A stretch of 64,000 nt of DNA from assembly GCA_051382295.1 (NCBI GenBank), contig JBBCAW010000010.1, positions 1 through 64,000 of the forward strand. The letters are read 5' to 3'. The notes below the pieces were generated by a model. That model was not told where the DNA came from. It saw only the letters and a list, made by a program, of their open reading frames with translations, and searched no databases. This document shows positions 34,197 through 48,246 of the stretch, in pieces (the first letter of the stretch is position 1; every line of letters begins with the position of its first letter). A program made the position numbers and the translations under genes. The DNA is from Bdellovibrionota bacterium FG-1 (lineage in GTDB: Bacteria > Bdellovibrionota > UBA1018).

Positions 34197-35381
34197 CTAC
34201 GCCGCCTTTTTATCTTTTGATGAAAATGATAAATAGGTCGCCTCAACATGGGCCGGCTGGACAATGGGCAGACTCATTCTGAAACAAGTATGGGGATGAG
34301 TCCTATCGAGTTCTAACTTGCCATGGTGTTCCTTCAAGATAGAATGAGAAATACTCAAACCAATGCCGGTACCCTCGCCTTGCGGTTTGGTCGTAAAAAA
34401 TGGTTCCATGATCTTATTGGCAACACTCGGTGGAATCCCACCGCCACTATCAATCAAGGCGATCTCAATCATTCCTTCGTCCTCTCTCACTTCAAGACGA
34501 ACCCATTTTTCCGGAAGAGCCTTCACAGCATAGAACGAATTATTAAGTAAATTCAAGATAACTTAGGATATCTGAAGAGGACGGCATTCGAAATTCAGCT
34601 GCGGAAACTCATTGACCTCGAGGGTAACCCCGGCCCCTTTGAATTTTTCCTGACTCAGGGACAACACATCGTCTATGATCACTCGAAGAGAACTACTCTG
34701 AATGGAAGAAGCCTTATCGCTGCGAGCCATACGAAGCATAGCTTGAATCACCTTCGCTATTCGATTCGAAGTGGCTTCAAGGGTATCCAAACCACTGATC
34801 AACGCGGGCTGCTCCATTTTTCCAGACAAGATTCGCCGCTTCATCTGGGCCACCCGGCCCACGATAATCGCCAAGGGATTATTGATCTCATGAGCTACCC
34901 CGGCTGCCATTTCTCCCAAAGACGAGAGCCGCGCGGAGGTTTCCACCTTAGCCCTGTTTTCACGAGCGGTTCGTTCGACCGCTTTGAGGTCCGAAATGTC
35001 GGCCACCAAAAACAGGGTCCCGCTAAAAACACCGCCCTTTCCAAAAATAGGAGTCGCGCTAATCAAGGTCCACCGGGCAGAGCCGTTTTTGTGCCGCAGC
35101 TTAGCCTCAAACCGATCCACCGCCTGGGCCGGCTGACGCTCCATGAATAGCTCTACGGGAGTCACGTCATCAAACCAAATGAGATCAAAAATGGGCTTTT
35201 TAAGGATCTCGACTTCGGTCAGACCAACCATCGCTGAAAAAGCAGGATTACCGAACAAAGTATTCCCGTCAGGATCAACAATCCAAATCCCCTCCGCCAC
35301 GCTTTCGACGATCATCCGATAGATTTCGTCGCCCAGTAGATTGGAGCTATTTTGAAGATTTTTGAGGTGATCAGACGTCAT
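34197..35381 (-). pseudogene. PAS-domain sensor histidine kinase interrupted by an in-frame TAA
   Basis: PAS, AHEINNPL, then IS*VILNLLNN (TAA at 34563-34565, expected CAA), DSGGGI, PFFTTK, GTGIGL all in one frame. Confidence 0.88.
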
Positions 35382-35717: not shown

Positions 35718-35758
35718 TTTGACGCAGATCTCAACCAAAAGGTAGGGACTACTTTTTA
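35718..35758 (+). repeat. 41-bp perfect direct repeat, copy 1
   Basis: TTTGACGCAGATCTCAACCAAAAGGTAGGGACTACTTTTTA, identical to 39983..40023. Confidence 0.95.
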
Positions 35759-39982: not shown

Positions 39983-40023
39983 TTTGACGCAGATCTCAAC
40001 CAAAAGGTAGGGACTACTTTTTA
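39983..40023 (+). repeat. 41-bp perfect direct repeat, copy 2
   Basis: Identical to 35718..35758; includes the kinase stop codon. Confidence 0.95.
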
Positions 40024-42165
40024 AAACGGCGGATCTTTGCCTAATATTCCCGCTAGAAACTTATACTGCCGATACTGATCCGGCTCGTAACCAGTTGCAA
40101 GGTACACGCGAGCAAACCCCATTTTGTGGATTCTTGCAGCCACTTCCTCACCCTTAATCCCCTGGCCAAGATTAGCATCAACATAAACGGGTGTAGACTG
40201 GTGAAAGGTCTCTGCAGCAGCAAAGAACTGATCGGCGGTTGAGAAGCTCTTGAGCCTTTTCTGGGCGCTTTTAGCGCAGCTCCTCCAGGTCATGTGAACA
40301 AGCTCATCGTCATCAATCAGGATGGCATCAAGTAGCTCTAATGGTGCCGCAAACTTCACCGGCACAAACCCCGCGATGCCCTTGGGGATCAGTCTGACTT
40401 TCAACCTCTGACACCCTTCAGTAATCTGCTTTTCCTCAAACCTACTAGTCACCAGAATACTTTGCGGCCCCAGCTTAAGCTCCTCTATCAGGCTCAGGCC
40501 CGTCTCACGAAAGCCCAGGAGTTCGTAGTCAGCCAGATAGAGCGCATAGAGGGCGTCGGCTGCGTTCTCATTGATCCAAGTGCGAAGCTGATCCGGGGTT
40601 GACACATGCACCACTGTGATCTGCTTTTCTGAAACTCTGAGCGAATCAAACCGGCCCTGCCAGATCCCATGAATGGATGAGTCGTCATCAAGCACGACAA
40701 CCGATGCCCCGGGGCTGAGCTTCAGCTCCGACACAAACCAATCTGGTGCCGGTGTCCGAGGTAATGTCACCACGACAGTAGTGCCCTTGCCAACTTGAGA
40801 TTCAATCTTGAGCTTGCCACCCCAAGACTCAACGGAGGTGCGGGCGTGGAAAAGGCCAAGGCCCGAGCCACCTTCTTTGCCGTGAGTCTCACCACGTTGC
40901 CCGAGCTTGGCCAGAACCTCTGGTGGGATACCCTTGCCATTGTCGCGCACCGTGATCTCAATGTCATTGCCCCGGCTTTGCAAAGTGAGCGCAACAGATC
41001 CACGCTCGCCCAAGACTTCTACGGCGTTATTAACCAGATTAGACAGTACGCGCTTAAACTCCGTGGGCTGGATCTTGGCAAAAAGTCCGTAGGACGCTTC
41101 ATCAATCCGGCCATCGATCTCAACGCCTATTTTTGAGCGGAACTGCATGCGCTTTTCTGAGATCAATGGGTCAATGAGGCTAGAGAGAAGTTGGGTGGTG
41201 GTTGGCTCGGTGGCCGAAGGTGCTGCAGTTGCGCCTTGAGTCGGCTTCGTAGTTCTCAACTCACGGTTCTTGTCGATCAAGTTGTTGGCAATGTCCTTGA
41301 TACGATTCACGGCGGTGCGAACAAGGATTCGGTCGTCCTCTGGAAGTGCGTTGGCGCTGCTGATCACGTTGTCCAGGGCCGCGAGAGGGGAGCGGATGTC
41401 GTGGGCGACTTGATGCGCCACTGCACTTATAGCTGCAACTTGTCTGGACTCCGTGAGGTATTTCTTGGTGGTATCATAGTCGTTGAGAATCTTGTTTACG
41501 TCCTGTATCAACTCCCTCCATGCAGGCGGGTCAGATGGCTTCGCAGTAAACTCGGGGATTTCTTCCCCCGAAGCAAAGACTGAAATTTGCATTTTGAATG
41601 CTCTAAATGCCCGCTCCAACTTTTGGCTCATCACGGTAATTAATGCTGTAAGGCATCCCAAGATTAATAAAGAAACAGCCACAAATATGGCAATATTCTG
41701 TCTAATCGGTTTCTCACTCTCACCTTTATTGATCCCGAGCACAACCGTCCCAAAGGCCCCTTTCGGTGAAGCTTGGTCAGCCAAAACGGGGAAACGCGTC
41801 TCAATAACGACGCTTCTTCCAATTTGTCGGTCAAATTGAGCCGATTCCATCGGAGCCTGCCACTCTACTGGGAGATCAACGCCCATAAGCTCAACACGCG
41901 GGTATGAAAAAATCACACGAGACTTGGGATTGATGATCAAGACATAGTCTGGTCTGACCTTCTCCGAAAGCCTGCCCATGGCCTTATGAAGATCGAGCGT
42001 ATTACCTTGGGCCATAAATGGGTACACAAATTCGGAAATCAGCTGTGTTTTAAGTTGCAGATCTTTTCGTTCGTAATTTCTGAGTATCTGATACTGATAA
42101 AGGGCAATGACGCCGATTAGCGATAAAAGAAGAGCGAAAATGATACGATGAATTTTAGCAAACAT
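40021..42165 (-). CDS. Membrane sensor histidine kinase with two C-terminal receiver-like domains
   Basis: TM-periplasmic-TM; AHDIRSPL; NLVNNAVE, DNGKGI, GSGLGL; VLDDD and LIDDD receiver starts. Confidence 0.92.
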   Translation of the reverse strand: MFAKIHRIIFALLLSLIGVIALYQYQILRNYERKDLQLKTQLISEFVYPFMAQGNTLDLHKAMGRLSEKVRPDYVLIINPKSRVIFSYPRVELMGVDLPVEWQAPMESAQFDRQIGRSVVIETRFPVLADQASPKGAFGTVVLGINKGESEKPIRQNIAIFVAVSLLILGCLTALITVMSQKLERAFRAFKMQISVFASGEEIPEFTAKPSDPPAWRELIQDVNKILNDYDTTKKYLTESRQVAAISAVAHQVAHDIRSPLAALDNVISSANALPEDDRILVRTAVNRIKDIANNLIDKNRELRTTKPTQGATAAPSATEPTTTQLLSSLIDPLISEKRMQFRSKIGVEIDGRIDEASYGLFAKIQPTEFKRVLSNLVNNAVEVLGERGSVALTLQSRGNDIEITVRDNGKGIPPEVLAKLGQRGETHGKEGGSGLGLFHARTSVESWGGKLKIESQVGKGTTVVVTLPRTPAPDWFVSELKLSPGASVVVLDDDSSIHGIWQGRFDSLRVSEKQITVVHVSTPDQLRTWINENAADALYALYLADYELLGFRETGLSLIEELKLGPQSILVTSRFEEKQITEGCQRLKVRLIPKGIAGFVPVKFAAPLELLDAILIDDDELVHMTWRSCAKSAQKRLKSFSTADQFFAAAETFHQSTPVYVDANLGQGIKGEEVAARIHKMGFARVYLATGYEPDQYRQYKFLAGILGKDPPF

Positions 42166-42168
42166 CGA

Positions 42169-43755
42169 TTACCGTCCTCCACTTTCAGTGCAATTTTTTT
42201 GGTTATCATCTGTTCTCATCGTGAAAAAATAACGATCAGACCAGCCATCGCGATTAAGTTTTAACGAACTTCTTAACCATTCAATATTGTCATGCTGCTT
42301 GATGAATATGGCGGGCGGATCTTTTTTGACCAACTCCTCAATTTTTACCATGGTGGCGGCACGCGCATCGTAAGAGGCAGCACTAGCAAGTTGCCCCGCG
42401 AGGCCATCGTAAGCTGGGTTTGCGTAGCCACTAGCCACGACGCTTCCTTTGCTACCAAAAAGCGCGGAATAGAACGTCGGATCTGAAAAAGTACCCGTAA
42501 ACTCAACAAAAAGCAGGTCGTAATCGCCGGACTCCCTGACAGCATGATAAGCGGTATCATCCACTTTTATCAAATCGACGGAAAGATTCTTGATCCTCGT
42601 GAAAAGACTAAGCAGCTTTTCTGTATAATGGTGCCGATTACTGACCAATAGCTTAAGCCGGGCAGGACTTTGCAATTGGCATGTCTTTTCTGGCGGAGGT
42701 AAACTTTTTTGAACTCTGGTTTCCTTTCCTTGTTGGGCAGGGAAGATCCCATCTAGGGCGGTGGCTGTTGTGTGGTGATCTCGCTGGTCTTTAAGATATT
42801 CGTCTCGGTAAATACAGGAACTGATTGCCCTGCGCAGACCTGAACTTATTTTGGTGCCAAAACTGATAAACCATATGTTAGCTCCCGCGTAGCGGGTCAA
42901 ATTATAGCCTGGCGAATCACAAATTGCGGAATCAAGGGGTCCGGCATCAATAAAATCAAACGCTCCCGACTTTAAAGCAGAGCAACAGTCCTCCCCACCG
43001 TACTTGTACTGGATGGTTGTCAGATTCAAGAAATCAGGAAAGTGGGGATTTCTCTCTAGAGTGACGGAAGTCTCTGCAAAAGACGACACAACAAAAGGAC
43101 CGGAGGAAATTATTTCACTCTCCTTTAGAGGTCGTACTGGGGTCTCCGAAGGAAGAATTGATGCGGGCCCCATTGTCAGCATACTCAGAAAGTTTGCCCT
43201 GGGCTGTTTTAACGTAAAGCGAACTTTTCCTGGCTCTGGAGAGGTTAGCCCCACGAGCGATGATATTTTACCCCTTCGATAGTCTGAGGTCCCAATGATG
43301 CTATCCCCGAATAAGTAGTTGGCAACCTTGGAACCCAGCTTGGGCGAGAAAAGGCGATTGAAGGTGGCGATAACGTCGAAAGCGGTAATGGGGTTTCCAT
43401 TACTGAAACGATAATGGCCGTCTATTTCAAAAGTATACTCCAAGCCATCCTTCGAAATCTCCCATCGTTTTGCAAGGTAGGGGCGTATATTTTCATACTC
43501 GTCCAGCGCAACAAGCTGCCCGAAGGCAGTCAGAGCCAACTGGTTGTCCATATAGGCAATAATCTTGGCCGGGTCAAGCGAACTGGCCTTGGTCCGCATT
43601 AAGGCGGTAATTTGAGGCGGAAGGCAGCGATGCCCCTCGGGATTTCTTGGGTCAAAAACAGTCTGTGTGTCTTTGGATACTCGCCCCTGATCGCAGCCTT
43701 GTGCAAGAAGGATACAAAGTAAAAACGCTAGAGAACTGCTGAATCCTAGCTTCAT
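42169..43755 (-). CDS. Family 5 (OppA/DppA-like) solute-binding lipoprotein
   Basis: Lipobox LAQGC; LDPA, PYLAKRWEISKDGLEYTF, FSNGNPITAFDV, SGPFV, LERNPHF. Confidence 0.9.
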   Translation of the reverse strand: MKLGFSSSLAFLLCILLAQGCDQGRVSKDTQTVFDPRNPEGHRCLPPQITALMRTKASSLDPAKIIAYMDNQLALTAFGQLVALDEYENIRPYLAKRWEISKDGLEYTFEIDGHYRFSNGNPITAFDVIATFNRLFSPKLGSKVANYLFGDSIIGTSDYRRGKISSLVGLTSPEPGKVRFTLKQPRANFLSMLTMGPASILPSETPVRPLKESEIISSGPFVVSSFAETSVTLERNPHFPDFLNLTTIQYKYGGEDCCSALKSGAFDFIDAGPLDSAICDSPGYNLTRYAGANIWFISFGTKISSGLRRAISSCIYRDEYLKDQRDHHTTATALDGIFPAQQGKETRVQKSLPPPEKTCQLQSPARLKLLVSNRHHYTEKLLSLFTRIKNLSVDLIKVDDTAYHAVRESGDYDLLFVEFTGTFSDPTFYSALFGSKGSVVASGYANPAYDGLAGQLASAASYDARAATMVKIEELVKKDPPAIFIKQHDNIEWLRSSLKLNRDGWSDRYFFTMRTDDNQKNCTESGGR

Positions 43756-44771
43756 TTTTTTACATCCTGTAAAAGACGACTGACATTTCCGAATAGAATT
43801 TTATCAATCCTGGTCTTGCTATAACCGCGATTCTCCATATGAGTACTTAATGCGCCCATGCGGTCAATACTTTCCAAGCCTAAGCATGAATAGGGCATGC
43901 CATCGAAATCGGAACCGATCCCAGCAAAATCCTCGCCAAACTGATTAACGATATAATCAATGTGAGAGAAAACCGCCTCCACCCCGGGGAGCTTGAGAGG
44001 CCGTGGGTATTCAAATAGGAGAGCCTGAGTTTTGATTCGCAGTTCGGCGTCTGGATCGTCTCCAGTGCCTTTCGTTTTCGCAGCCAGGCCTTCCCAGAAG
44101 CGCTCCGGCTCGCCAGCTTCATACTTAAGATCCGGACAGAGGTGGGCAGGAAAAAAGGAAATACCAATAACTCCGCCAATGTTACATATCTTTGCAATCG
44201 CTTCAGCTGAGATACACCGACTGGACCCCGGGTTTTTTGCCCGTACCCCGCCGTGACTATACAGAAATGGCTTTTTGGCAACTCGGGCGACGTCCAGCAT
44301 CGTCTTTAACGACGCGTGAGCAACATCAACGAGAATGTCGTGATTTTCCAATAATCCAATTACCTGCTCGCCGAATTTATTCAGCCCCTTGCCTTCTTCT
44401 TGCTCGCTCCCAGCCCATGAAGGTCCAGAGAAGTGAGCTAACGTGAGCATTCGTACGCCCACTTGGCTAAGGCGGGCAACTTGCGTGAGATCATCATTCA
44501 GACAAAATCCACCCTCAACGGAAATGTAGGCATCACAATTGATGGTGGCCAGAGGACGTGTCATCACCTTGATCTCAGCGATTGATTTGTGGACATGGGA
44601 GATCGCAGCGCTTCCCCGAAAGGCCGGATTTGACCAAATGGAAAAGAACAGAGCCTTGATGGTGGATCGTGATAATTTTTTAACGTCAATCTGGAGACCG
44701 TCCGAGCCACCCGCGAAAGAGAGACCGCACTGGGAGGCCTTCAAAAAGGTGTCATTATGAAGATCGATCAT
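43752..44771 (-). CDS. Membrane dipeptidase (peptidase M19) family
   Basis: IDLHND, SVEG, GVRMLTLAH, LVDVAH, SHGG, GIGSDFDG; start MIDLH after GGAGG. Confidence 0.9.
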   Translation of the reverse strand: MIDLHNDTFLKASQCGLSFAGGSDGLQIDVKKLSRSTIKALFFSIWSNPAFRGSAAISHVHKSIAEIKVMTRPLATINCDAYISVEGGFCLNDDLTQVARLSQVGVRMLTLAHFSGPSWAGSEQEEGKGLNKFGEQVIGLLENHDILVDVAHASLKTMLDVARVAKKPFLYSHGGVRAKNPGSSRCISAEAIAKICNIGGVIGISFFPAHLCPDLKYEAGEPERFWEGLAAKTKGTGDDPDAELRIKTQALLFEYPRPLKLPGVEAVFSHIDYIVNQFGEDFAGIGSDFDGMPYSCLGLESIDRMGALSTHMENRGYSKTRIDKILFGNVSRLLQDVKK

Positions 44772-46458
44772 CGTGCGCCTCCCACATGGGCTTAATCTCC
44801 GCTTTAAGCGCCTTTTCAAGCTTTGAAAAACTGGACGGACTTGGGCTATCAATTGTTGTTAACTGTTTTTCTCCCGATGCCCGGTGGATGATAAGCCAAT
44901 CCGTCATTTTATCGCTGAATTCGACTTCCTCTGAATTGAGAATCCTCAAAAAATTCAGCGGCAACTTCAGATGGCGAAAATTGCCGATCGGACACTCTCG
45001 GCGAGCTCGCTCATACGCCAGGATCGAGTTGTGCAAATCTGTTTTTCCTTCGTGGTAGGGGTCAAAGGCAAGGCATTGGTCGATTATATTATCCGTTTTG
45101 TCCTTACGCCAAACCTCAAAGCTCTTTGGAAAATGATAAAGGACGTTATTGATCCTTTCGGCAAGTGATCCGAGAGAACCCCCATACGCATGAGGAACGT
45201 TGTAAAATCCCCGACAGAGCATGGGCTGGTTCTTTATGATCTCTTGAATTTCCAGGTTGAAGTCCTCATCCCCCGGTTTACTATAGGCCATGTCGGATAC
45301 ATCTTGTGGAAGATATGTTAGGGACAATTCAGCACACGATGAGAATGGCAGCGGCGAGAACTTGTGAATATGGGACGTCACACCACGAATCTGAGCACAT
45401 TCGAGGGCGAATTCAAGTGTGTCCGAGATTTCTGAGAATTCTTCCTCGGGCAGGCCGACGATAAAGGACAACGTGGGGATAATGCCTGCATCGGTAATCG
45501 CATGCACGCGGGTCTTGATCTCTTCTAGGGGCAGCCTTTGATTCTTCAGACCAATCCTCTGGGGCGATACAGTTTCAATTCCAACTAAGACCGATTGACA
45601 GCCTGCAGCTTTCATTCGTGATAGCATTTCCGGTTTTATAGTTTCTAACCGCGTCCGGCAATTCCATGTAATTTTTTTCCCCAGAGGCTTAAGACGGTCG
45701 AGAAGGTCCAAGACATAGGTTTTTGGTTGTAAAAAATTGTCGTGAGTAAATTCGAATCGGATGATTCCGTAATTTCGATGCAGGTGCATTATGTGTTCGA
45801 TTGTTGCTTCAGCGCTCTTGGTAATTACAGTGCGACCCCAAAACTGGGTTTCAGAGCAGAAGCTGCACTTTCCACTGCAACCTCTCGCATTGTCAATGTA
45901 GCCTACGGGTGGGTAGTGCCGCAGATCCGAAGTCGGAATCAACGTGTAATCAGGAAACGGCTGCTGTGGGAACTCGGATACGGTCGGTACTCGAGATATG
46001 CCAAGCGTTTGAACACAATACTCCAAGAAATGCCTCTCATTGGCGGCTGGGAAAATTTCATCAAAAAGCGATCCAAAGTGGGAAGCATTTTTCCCAAACT
46101 CCGCTACCGATAATGCCTGAGGCCCGCCCATAACTATTTTGGATTTAGTTTTTGACCGGAGACGGCTGATAATGGCCAGCGCCATTGGAGTCGATGCGCA
46201 CTGACAGCTAAATCCGATAATCTTTGGCTTCAATGATATGATTTTATCAGCGCAACGATCAAAAACGCCTCGACTCAGCGATTCGCGGCCCTGATACACC
46301 TCCAAGGAAAGGTCCAAAACTCTGCAGGATATCCCCACGGATTTAAGGAGCGTTCCCAGAGTAAGGGCACCCAAGGGGATACCAGTTCCAAAATTTGACT
46401 GAAATGGAGGGATTACGCAAACTACATCGGCAGTGGAACAAAAACCGGCTTTGAACAT
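44755..46458 (-). CDS. B12-binding radical SAM enzyme
   Basis: N-terminal cobalamin-binding domain (IIGFS, IVMGGP); RGCSGKCSFC; GIET; FIVGLPEE. Confidence 0.92.
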   Translation of the reverse strand: MFKAGFCSTADVVCVIPPFQSNFGTGIPLGALTLGTLLKSVGISCRVLDLSLEVYQGRESLSRGVFDRCADKIISLKPKIIGFSCQCASTPMALAIISRLRSKTKSKIVMGGPQALSVAEFGKNASHFGSLFDEIFPAANERHFLEYCVQTLGISRVPTVSEFPQQPFPDYTLIPTSDLRHYPPVGYIDNARGCSGKCSFCSETQFWGRTVITKSAEATIEHIMHLHRNYGIIRFEFTHDNFLQPKTYVLDLLDRLKPLGKKITWNCRTRLETIKPEMLSRMKAAGCQSVLVGIETVSPQRIGLKNQRLPLEEIKTRVHAITDAGIIPTLSFIVGLPEEEFSEISDTLEFALECAQIRGVTSHIHKFSPLPFSSCAELSLTYLPQDVSDMAYSKPGDEDFNLEIQEIIKNQPMLCRGFYNVPHAYGGSLGSLAERINNVLYHFPKSFEVWRKDKTDNIIDQCLAFDPYHEGKTDLHNSILAYERARRECPIGNFRHLKLPLNFLRILNSEEVEFSDKMTDWLIIHRASGEKQLTTIDSPSPSSFSKLEKALKAEIKPMWEAHDDRSS

Positions 46459-46505
46459 GGCAACCCTTAGCTATTACTATCTGCGTTTGCAGACGTCACA
46501 GAACC

Positions 46506-46529
46506 GATGGTCAAAACCGATTTGACATC
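46506..46529 (-). terminator. Stem-loop immediately 3' of the precursor peptide
   Basis: GATG(G)TCAAA-ACCGA-TTTGACATC overlapping the peptide stop codon. Confidence 0.5.
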
Positions 46530-46650
46530 AGAATGGGGCTATCGGCGTCTTTTGGATAGTTTCAAGCTCTCCAGCTCCAAGGTCTAGGAGAATCTCAACG
46601 ACCGAGACGATTTTTATTTCTTCTTTTTCCGCAAGTTGGACTTCTTTCAT
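46528..46650 (-). CDS. 40-aa putative RiPP precursor peptide
   Basis: MKEVQLAEKEEIKIVSVVEILLDLGAGELETIQKTPIAPF*; AGGAG RBS 10 nt upstream; 69 nt before the rSAM start; below the ORF-track size cutoff. Confidence 0.75.
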   Translation of the reverse strand: MKEVQLAEKEEIKIVSVVEILLDLGAGELETIQKTPIAPF

Positions 46651-46702
46651 AAGAACTAATCTCCTAATATGGTTTTGAGTCTATAGCATTAATTGATGCG
46701 GT

Positions 46703-48020
46703 GTGGCAATTAATTTCGCCGGAAAATATGCCGCCCGGAGCCTAGCGGTTTTGATGCTATATTCCAGTAAATTAAGGATAATGTTTTATGAAACACGAAG
46801 TTTATGTGGAGTTTTCTTGAGGCATGTGCTGACTACCCGTATAGATGAATGGTCGGCCCAAAAGGCGATTCTCATTGCCACGCTAATCAACTACTCCTTT
46901 AACTTCGTCTACTCCCTCCTGGGCGCGGTACTCCTTCAAGTTACGGTGCTCCCGCCAGACAAGGCAATGCTGGTGCTGGCCGCTGCCTTCGGATTGTCTG
47001 CATTGGCCCAGCCGGCAATCGGCGCCCTGATTGATCGGGAATATATCTTTTTGCCCGTCTTCCTCTCGGTCTTTGGGAATGCCTTTGGTGTGATCTCACT
47101 ATTTGGTCACTCCATCTGGGTTGTAATCTGTGGCGTATCTCTTTTTTTGATCAGCGCGGGGGCGATTCAGACAGTCACTTCGCATCTGGTGGAGGGTTTG
47201 GCCCCGGACGGACAGATTCGTGCGATGGCTTCAAAAAACTACATCATGGGCAATATTGGTTTTGCGATTAGTGCGACGTTGACCTTTTTTTTTGAAGAGC
47301 CATCGTTATCTATTGCTTGGTTTGGACATCGTTTCGACCTTATTTTATTGTACCGTCCTTTGGTGGGCATCCCGGCAGCTCGTACGCAAGGTTCGCAAGC
47401 CCATCAAAAAGTCTAGAGTTATTAGCTCGAACATATTCAATATTGTTCAGTGGCTCAAAATGGTGCCAGCTATTTTTGCGGGGATTGCCCTTTTTCTCGG
47501 GATGGCCGCTCCAATTTCAGCGCTGCCAGTATTGTTTAAAGCCTTGGGCTTAGACCCCATACCTTACACAGCTTTGGTTGTTGCATCGAATGCTGTGGTG
47601 GTGATTTTTTTTGGATTATTTTTGGGCAAATTCAAGCTCCCTTTAGCTGTACGAACGGTAGGAGCAGGGACATTGATCGCACTGGGCCTGGGTGTTCAGC
47701 CTCTTATTACAGGACCAGTTGGGGCCATTCTTGCGACAGCCCTTTGGTCAATTGGGGAGGTTCTGGTCATTGCCGAGATCGCTGCAGCCTTTTTTGAACG
47801 GTCTAATCCCGAATATCTTGGCCTCGCAGCCGGGCTGAAAATCTTTTCCATGCGTTTTGGATATTTTCTTTGCCCCCTCTTTGTTTGGTTTTTCAGGCCG
47901 ACGACTGTCACTCAGTTCATTCTCATTTGGGGGTTGCCTACGTTTTCTGCAGGCTGGGTTTTATATCTAGCACTTAAGCGGCCCCGATCAACCCCGAGCC
48001 CCGAGTTCTCCCGGTCATAA
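46703..48020 (+). pseudogene. MFS transporter frameshifted at a T9 tract (47285-47293)
   Basis: GALIDR motif A in the first half; removing one T joins ...TFF to LKSHRYLLL...; start uncertain. Confidence 0.8.
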
Positions 48021-48169: not shown

Positions 48170-48246
48170 TGGCGTACCCGGCTGGAGTCGAACCAGCGAC
48201 CTACGGCTTCGGAGACCGTCACTCTATCCAGCTGAGCTACGGGTAC
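48170..48246 (-). tRNA. tRNA-Arg(CCG)
   Basis: GTACCCG/CGGGTAC acceptor stem, ACGGT-CTCCGAA-GCCGT anticodon arm, GGTTCGACTCC T arm, encoded CCA. Confidence 0.96.

Follow-up and report, generated by a model that had tools for sequence, protein, structure and literature searches.

Can a single short gene run encode both the means of making a modified ribosomal peptide and the means of sensing it? This question is raised by a locus in the draft genome of Bdellovibrionota bacterium FG-1 (GCA_051382295.1; 158 contigs, 4.44 Mb, 97.7% complete, 51.3% GC), in which five minus-strand genes, encoding a 40-aa peptide, a radical S-adenosylmethionine enzyme (rSAM), an M19 dipeptidase, a family-5 solute-binding protein (SBP) and a hybrid histidine kinase, lie divergent to a major facilitator superfamily (MFS) transporter. 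The locus was studied within a stretch of 64,000 nt (contig JBBCAW010000010.1, positions 1 to 64,000), hereafter the window, for which an earlier note made from the sequence alone had proposed a circuit that makes a modified peptide, exports it and then senses it. The reading that we tentatively favor, while placing it short of probable, is a one-off composite operon in which a maturation module of the type acting on peptides that are made by the ribosome and modified after translation (RiPPs) is joined to a periplasmic peptide-sensor module.

The run begins with the 40-aa open reading frame (ORF; 46528-46650, minus strand), a putative precursor known from the ORF call, with no match in Pfam or NCBIfam. 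It is followed on the same strand by a 567-aa class-B rSAM, i.e., one with a B12-binding domain (44755-46458; assigned by Pfam, NCBIfam and a structural model), a predicted cytoplasmic M19 (renal-type) dipeptidase of 339 aa if started at the ATG at 44771, with an alternative TTG at 44852 (43752-44771; Pfam), a periplasmic OppA/MppA/DppE-like SBP of 528 aa that is probably a lipoprotein (42169-43755; Pfam and fold), and a 714-aa hybrid histidine kinase (40021-42165; Pfam, transmembrane (TM) prediction and alignment). The start of the M19 gene overlaps the end of the rSAM gene by 17 nt (ATG) or 98 nt (TTG), the ATG of the SBP gene sits on the TGA of the M19 gene in an ATGA overlap, and the kinase starts 3 nt past the SBP stop. 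Gene order and translational coupling thus point to a single unit, and all genes and junctions lie where the earlier note had placed them. None of the five genes is interrupted, and the alignments show their catalytic motifs to be kept. Their GC content (47-51%) is near that of the genome, which rules out a low-GC island. A scan for promoters and terminators performed no better than on shuffled sequences, and no ABC permease gene is present in the run.

What would the rSAM act on? The protein matches Pfam Radical_SAM with 60.4 bits (cut-off 29.5), and its C194-x3-C198-x2-C201 (CxxxCxxC) motif is invariant in the alignment. The B12-binding domain (PF02310) is borderline, falling just short of its cut-off of 32.1 with 30.0 bits and reaching 33.1 bits in the genome scan. 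The proposed assignment to the cobalamin-type rSAMs is thus borne out by the cluster motif and both domains, as far as sequence can tell, and we infer that the enzyme uses cobalamin. The genome contains five matches to the B12-binding domain, one of them in a 1202-aa ORF.

The top NCBIfam family is ApyD (NF050148; E 1.4e-39), although the score of 136.1 bits is under the equivalog cut-off of 750. The NCBIfam list also includes further class-B families, many of them small-molecule enzymes (HpnJ, PhpK, BzaD, AprD4, and ArsL). In an AF2 model, the Rossmann and barrel core is confident, with a predicted local distance difference test score (pLDDT) of 70-93, while residues 420-567 are below 50; the top folds found by Foldseek are AprD4, MgmA, TsrM, OxsB, CysS, and TokK, the last five of them cobalamin rSAMs. 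The C-terminal ~150 aa are unique, and the last 168 aa cannot be aligned to relatives (hhalign probability 0.2). Only the generic rSAM core was matched in 40 related genomes (at most 31% identity), and a protein atlas returned only generic B12-rSAM clusters. Judged by its sequence, the enzyme is an orphan whose nearest relatives, 27-30% identical, are ApyD-like.

These relatives belong to a large soil-metagenome group (the P0002 family) that matches ApyD with 390 bits and carries a weak ApyI-like tail. We confirmed at least 412 metagenomic stretches and kept 80 loci, many of them short, in which ORFs of at least 80 aa were called. In 14 of the 80, a conserved ORF of ~100 aa that ends in NMGCDVP lies just upstream of the rSAM on the same strand, and therefore this clade plausibly acts on small gene-encoded substrates. 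Across loci L049, L073, L100, L115, and others, the ORF is ~85-100 aa long and ends in TNMGC(D/E)VP; it is a possible undescribed substrate family. A weak match to a twin-arginine signal was seen in two of the four upstream ORFs scanned.

The putative precursor itself reads MKEVQ...KTPIAPF, with an acidic, helical N-terminal half, an LDLGA|G junction, and the tail GELETIQKTPIAPF. A Shine-Dalgarno (SD)-like AGGAG is located 10 nt 5' of its ATG, and the ORF lies 69 nt ahead of the rSAM gene. We shuffled the 325-nt spacer 2000 times, preserving dinucleotides, and searched the operon strand for ORFs of at least 40 aa: such an ORF arose in 734 shuffles, and an ORF together with an SD-like motif in 53. 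The ORF by itself thus lies within chance, and its combination with an SD site is fairly unusual. Matches in the protein atlas are unnamed short proteins only. The predicted complex of the rSAM and the peptide scored 0.01 against a mark of 0.32, which speaks neither for nor against binding.

Directly 3' of the ORF stop, the spacer (46459-46527, minus strand) folds into two hairpins without a U-tract; this is weak evidence of structure, with a minimum free energy of -21.6 kcal/mol, a z-score of -2.05, and equally stable folds in 4 of 200 shuffles. On the other side, between the ORF and the MFS gene and 38-64 nt upstream of the peptide ATG, lies a perfect inverted repeat of 8 nt, ATTAATTG-N11-CAATTAAT (46688-46714), which we read from the sequence as a candidate operator. 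It is the sole exact copy in the 4.44-Mb genome.

The M19 protein is the most conventional member of the run. It matches PF01244 with 195.2 bits (cut-off 26), carries an N-terminal DLHNDT motif, and has neither a predicted TM segment nor a signal peptide. In alignments to the closest solved structures, Sco3058 (3id7) and human renal dipeptidase (1itq), all five motif positions (E, H, H, R, and D) are kept, which we take to be the metal- and carboxylate-binding residues. Sco3058 prefers L-Xaa-D-Xaa dipeptides. The gene is the sole M19 copy in the genome, and relatives of 34-55% identity occur in 4 of the 40 related genomes, where they adjoin genes for a phosphorylase, an esterase, GTP cyclohydrolase I, or unrelated MFS-like proteins, i.e., in housekeeping contexts. 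The closest relative (genome G022, contig C312, 8803-9839), whose two pieces are 45% and 54% identical, is itself broken into two frames; its contig has a GC content of 36.6%, and its neighbors are MFS-like genes and three large ORFs without a Pfam family. These MFS-like neighbors were considered as a counterpart of the MFS described here and rejected, as they are not homologous to it.

Besides the would-be maturation genes, the run encodes what may be a receptor. The SBP matches PF00496 with 124.8 bits (cut-off 32.4) and has an N-terminal hydrophobic segment, which upholds the family-5 assignment in the earlier note. As for the lipoprotein part of that assignment, the lipobox (LAQGC) departs from the canonical form and is conserved in neither ortholog. 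The model of the SBP (pLDDT 80.8) is nearest in Foldseek to MppA (E 9.5e-36), OppA, and DppE, and the list includes the signal-binding AapF and PrgZ. The ligands of its nearest solved relatives are murein tripeptide (MppA and DppE) or oligopeptides. Only two orthologs were found (P0042, 40% and P0043, 42% identity; next match 26%), and six cysteines are conserved. A pattern search of genome contigs for the SBP matched 41 stretches, with no relative among them.

The adjoining kinase has a TM helix at residues 1-28, a periplasmic domain of ~125 aa (~29-152), a second TM helix at 153-183, an H-box with H255, an HATPase domain at 367-471, and two receiver-like domains, REC1 (D546) and REC2. The membrane kinase of the earlier note is thereby confirmed and, further, identified as a hybrid type. 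No DNA-binding tail was detected on it, and six histidine phosphotransfer (Hpt) matches occur elsewhere in the genome. Its first 250 residues match three proteins in 1.84 billion representatives; in 400 further genomes of the phylum they match none. One of the three is clustered with a full-length protein, P0127 (784 aa), that has the same kinase-REC-REC layout, and the H-, N-, and G-boxes as well as the Asp and Lys of REC1 are invariant in the four kinases.

An SBP gene that adjoins a kinase with a periplasmic domain (29-152), in a run with no cognate ABC permease, is the gene arrangement expected of a LuxPQ/ChiS-CBP-type pair. The SBP ortholog P0042 and the kinase relative P0127 fall under the same record ('ENA, 4 contigs, longest 55269'), which indicates shared contigs, although adjacency there is unproven. 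Because each protein has two to three relatives and one relative of each stands under the same contig record, the SBP and the kinase look like a conserved sensor pair, each of a tiny family, as the proposed pairing of binding protein and kinase had supposed.

The sixth gene is divergent from the run, as described before, but is not a single gene as assembled, a split that had been missed. Its N-terminal half (frame A, 46784-47416, plus strand) meets a stop after a T9 run, and its C-terminal half (frame B, 47283-48020, plus strand), also an MFS match in Pfam, is open only from 47283; the two overlapping frames change over exactly at the T9 run (47285-47293). The split amounts to a one-base homopolymer difference, arising either in the assembly or as a true break in the gene.

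How could these parts work together? In the composite operon that we favor, the 40-aa peptide would be made in excess, as the strong SD site and the hairpins past the stop suggest. By analogy with ApyD, the rSAM would then modify one or more unactivated carbons in the hydrophobic tail (...KTPIAPF), most likely by C-methylation. Proteases encoded elsewhere may cleave the product, after which the M19 enzyme would trim or release a C-terminal piece with a free carboxylate, and the divergent MFS could export it, provided that the cell carries an unbroken copy of the gene. In the periplasm, the OppA/MppA-like SBP would bind a peptide and set the activity of the kinase through the 125-aa periplasmic domain, as in ChiS-CBP and LuxPQ, and the REC domains would pass the signal to an Hpt protein and a regulator encoded elsewhere, acting possibly at the palindrome upstream of the peptide gene. 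The ligand of the SBP could be the operon's own product; this is the least supported step of the scheme. A full autoinducer circuit of a diderm, consisting of a C-methylated 40-mer, a very short C-terminal fragment with an M19 enzyme on its maturation route, MFS export, and an SBP-gated hybrid kinase, is in our view quite unlikely.

A number of results weigh against this scheme. Homologs of the M19, SBP, MFS, and peptide genes were found by tblastn at none of 84 rSAM-relative loci (80 metagenomic and 4 genomic), two of which match the kinase core only. The earlier note had named the absence of shared peptide and partner genes as grounds for abandoning its proposal, and this absence is what we observed, yet these rSAMs are only 27-30% identical to the one studied here. 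The closest non-self match among 5.8 billion proteins reaches 27% identity over 70% of the length, and the peptide has no homolog among 115 other genomes of the order. The last 168 aa of the rSAM yielded neither a RiPP precursor recognition element (RRE) nor any other known domain (Pfam at E up to 5, and hhalign), although a divergent RRE beyond detection may lie in this low-pLDDT tail. AprD4, which ranks first among the structural matches, carries the annotation of a diol dehydratase and is not known to use cobalamin. Searches for CobD/CbiB, BtuB (TIGR01779), and a cobalamin riboswitch found none in the 97.7%-complete genome. M19 enzymes act on dipeptides rather than on a 40-mer. In the available text of a 2023 review of RiPP proteases, the words 'dipeptidase' and 'M19' occur 0 times (PMC10885120), and no M19 enzyme in RiPP maturation was found in the literature searched. 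The RiPP part of the original proposal is supported in that the top family of the rSAM is ApyD and its nearest relatives often follow a small ORF, and is weakened in that no RRE was detected and the cluster has no leader protease.

The self-sensing part fares worse. The rSAM search gave no ortholog on the contigs that hold the SBP and kinase relatives, from which it would seem that the sensor pair occurs apart from this rSAM and did not evolve with it. The cluster lacks genes for a leader protease, a response regulator, and an Hpt protein, the M19 dipeptidase being its only hydrolase; the exporter is frameshifted as assembled, and nothing links the sensor to the product.

One alternative is that the SBP-kinase pair, perhaps with the M19 enzyme, senses and processes an exogenous cue such as a cell-wall or D-amino-acid peptide, and that the peptide and rSAM are cue-induced cargo (e.g., an antimicrobial RiPP) or merely co-transcribed. 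The occurrence of the sensor family without this rSAM, the murein tripeptide or oligopeptide ligands of the nearest solved SBPs, and the L-Xaa-D-Xaa preference of Sco3058 are all consistent with it, and the M19 gene, given its relatives in housekeeping contexts, looks recruited from a native pool. The overlapping codons that tie the rSAM, M19, and SBP genes together argue instead for one function, and the run contains no uptake permease that would suit a nutrient role; we regard an outside cue as somewhat unlikely. A further possibility concerns the precursor. If the 40-aa ORF were spurious, the rSAM substrate could be a small molecule or a peptide taken up from outside, with the SBP as sensor, the MFS as importer, and the M19 enzyme all serving in the sensing and salvage of an unusual peptide-like compound. 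More than a third of the spacer shuffles yield an ORF of this length, the ORF has no homolog, the rSAM has no detectable RRE, and many of its NCBIfam matches are small-molecule enzymes. The presence of an SD site and the position ahead of the rSAM are, however, reproduced together in only 53 of the 2000 shuffles, and both the top family and the nearest relatives of the rSAM are of the peptide-modifying ApyD type, which leaves this explanation distinctly unlikely.

Could the locus be a recent patchwork at a variable site by a tRNA-Arg gene that has already lost its function? The frameshifted MFS gene, the singleton gene set, the end of synteny at the tRNA, and the mixed ancestry (an M19 gene with relatives in the family, and SBP, kinase, and rSAM genes without) would fit such a decaying mosaic, as would a second kinase 5 kb away that is split by an in-frame TAA. 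Against it, the five minus-strand genes are intact with their catalytic motifs, their GC content is close to that of the genome, and a frameshift in a homopolymer is a common assembly error in a draft of 158 contigs. We hold decay to be highly improbable, and return to the composite operon in comparing the locus with known systems.

ApyD of Burkholderia thailandensis, from the aminopyruvatide pathway, shares the B12-binding-domain rSAM architecture and methylates the C-beta of an aromatic residue near the C-terminus; the tail of the peptide described here ends in Pro-Phe. ApyD is described as a cobalamin rSAM by which the penultimate Tyr in the precursor ApyA is beta-methylated (PMC10635010). 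The rSAM of the operon differs in its far lower score (136 against 750 bits), its 27-30% identity to the P0002 family, its unique C-terminal domain, and the lack of a detectable RRE, and the operon contains no multinuclear iron oxidative (MNIO) enzyme, P450, or methyltransferase partner.

Bottromycin and polytheonamide are likewise RiPPs that are C-methylated by class-B rSAMs, and the likeness extends to a single cluster in which a short, here putative, precursor accompanies a B12-type rSAM, a metallo-hydrolase, and an MFS gene. The follower peptide of bottromycin is removed by a dinuclear-zinc amidohydrolase, PurAH/BotAH, according to the review of RiPP proteases (PMC10885120). In contrast to these pathways, the operon has no YcaO or other tailoring gene, its hydrolase is of the M19 type, and a sensor pair is added. 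Mycofactocin and PQQ are small molecules released from the C-terminal part of a peptide. Their rSAMs are of the SPASM type with a PqqD-like RRE, and neither feature was found in the operon. The same review text describes the cleavage of mycofactocin, after modification, by the creatininase homolog MftE (PMC10885120). The resemblance to mycofactocin and PQQ would lie in the logic by which a C-terminal residue pair is modified and then excised by a non-classical metallo-hydrolase.

On the sensing side, ChiS-CBP of Vibrio cholerae and LuxP-LuxQ combine a periplasmic binding protein with a membrane hybrid kinase, a combination seen here at the level of genes, and CBP is also a family-5 SBP. The sensor domains are unrelated in sequence to the one described here, where the kinase has two REC domains and the ligand is presumably a peptide. 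CBP is reported to bind the hybrid kinase ChiS and to control it (10.1101/2020.01.10.902320). Ribosomal peptides are also sensed by kinases encoded with the biosynthetic genes in the nisin/subtilin, agr, and ComD systems, which is what the operon would do if its product were the ligand; a binding protein intervenes here, and no regulator is nearby. Those kinases (e.g., NisK with NisR) bind the peptide directly and are paired with an in-cluster response regulator.

The genomic setting was compared with that in relatives. Synteny of four genes (g50642, g49665, Maf, and YggS) is kept in all six relative loci, and tRNA-Arg(CCG), at 48170-48246 on the minus strand in the window (Rfam), is present in five of them, directly adjoining YggS in three. 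Past the tRNA nothing matches the relatives, whose own neighbors differ from one another. As synteny stops at the tRNA and the GC content is near that of the genome, the site is variable and transfer is unproven. In the relatives (L037-L042), the genes past the tRNA are xanthine-dehydrogenase-like, encode a multiheme cytochrome or a multicopper oxidase, or are of no recognized kind. No integrase was found beyond the tRNA in four relatives (7 ORFs scanned), and Rfam matches in the window are limited to the tRNA.

At the 3' end of the operon, a 41-nt dispersed repeat (39983-40023) abuts the kinase stop. An identical copy at 35718-35758 abuts the stop codon of an OEP gene, and the two bracket a MarR-HlyD-MFS-TolC efflux cassette. 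A target-site duplication was considered and ruled out, as six more copies with 2-6 mismatches on contigs C5, C122, C22, and C131 make this a dispersed family of at least eight copies resembling repetitive extragenic palindromes. Farther along (34197-35381, minus strand), a PAS-HisKA ORF (272 aa) and an HATPase_c ORF (119 aa) share one reading frame, with only a TAA and 6 nt between them, and read as one histidine kinase split by an in-frame stop. The only C39 match of the genome is a stand-alone C39-like peptidase of 159 aa (contig C148, 104-583, minus strand; a 2-kb contig), with no ABC transporter domain beside it in the piece of C148 examined.

The earlier note did not recognize the gene combination as described, and we likewise found it neither in the literature searched nor among the 84 rSAM-relative loci. 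No paper joining RiPPs, an M19 enzyme or dipeptidase, and radical SAM was found in a search that left most subscription journals outside, and no cluster combining a cobalamin rSAM of RiPP type with a kinase and a binding protein is described in the titles and opening lines of abstracts retrieved. All parts come from known families, and as a single occurrence in a draft genome the combination amounts to a lead. If the reading is true, an M19 dipeptidase would take part in RiPP maturation, an ApyD-like rSAM of great divergence would carry a new substrate-recognition domain, and a small, unnoticed family of hybrid kinases would respond to periplasmic peptides through a binding protein. Self-signaling by peptides is established in Gram-positive bacteria and rare in diderms; were the full circuit true, it would bring a new signal chemistry together with a receptor family that so far has four kinase and three SBP members.

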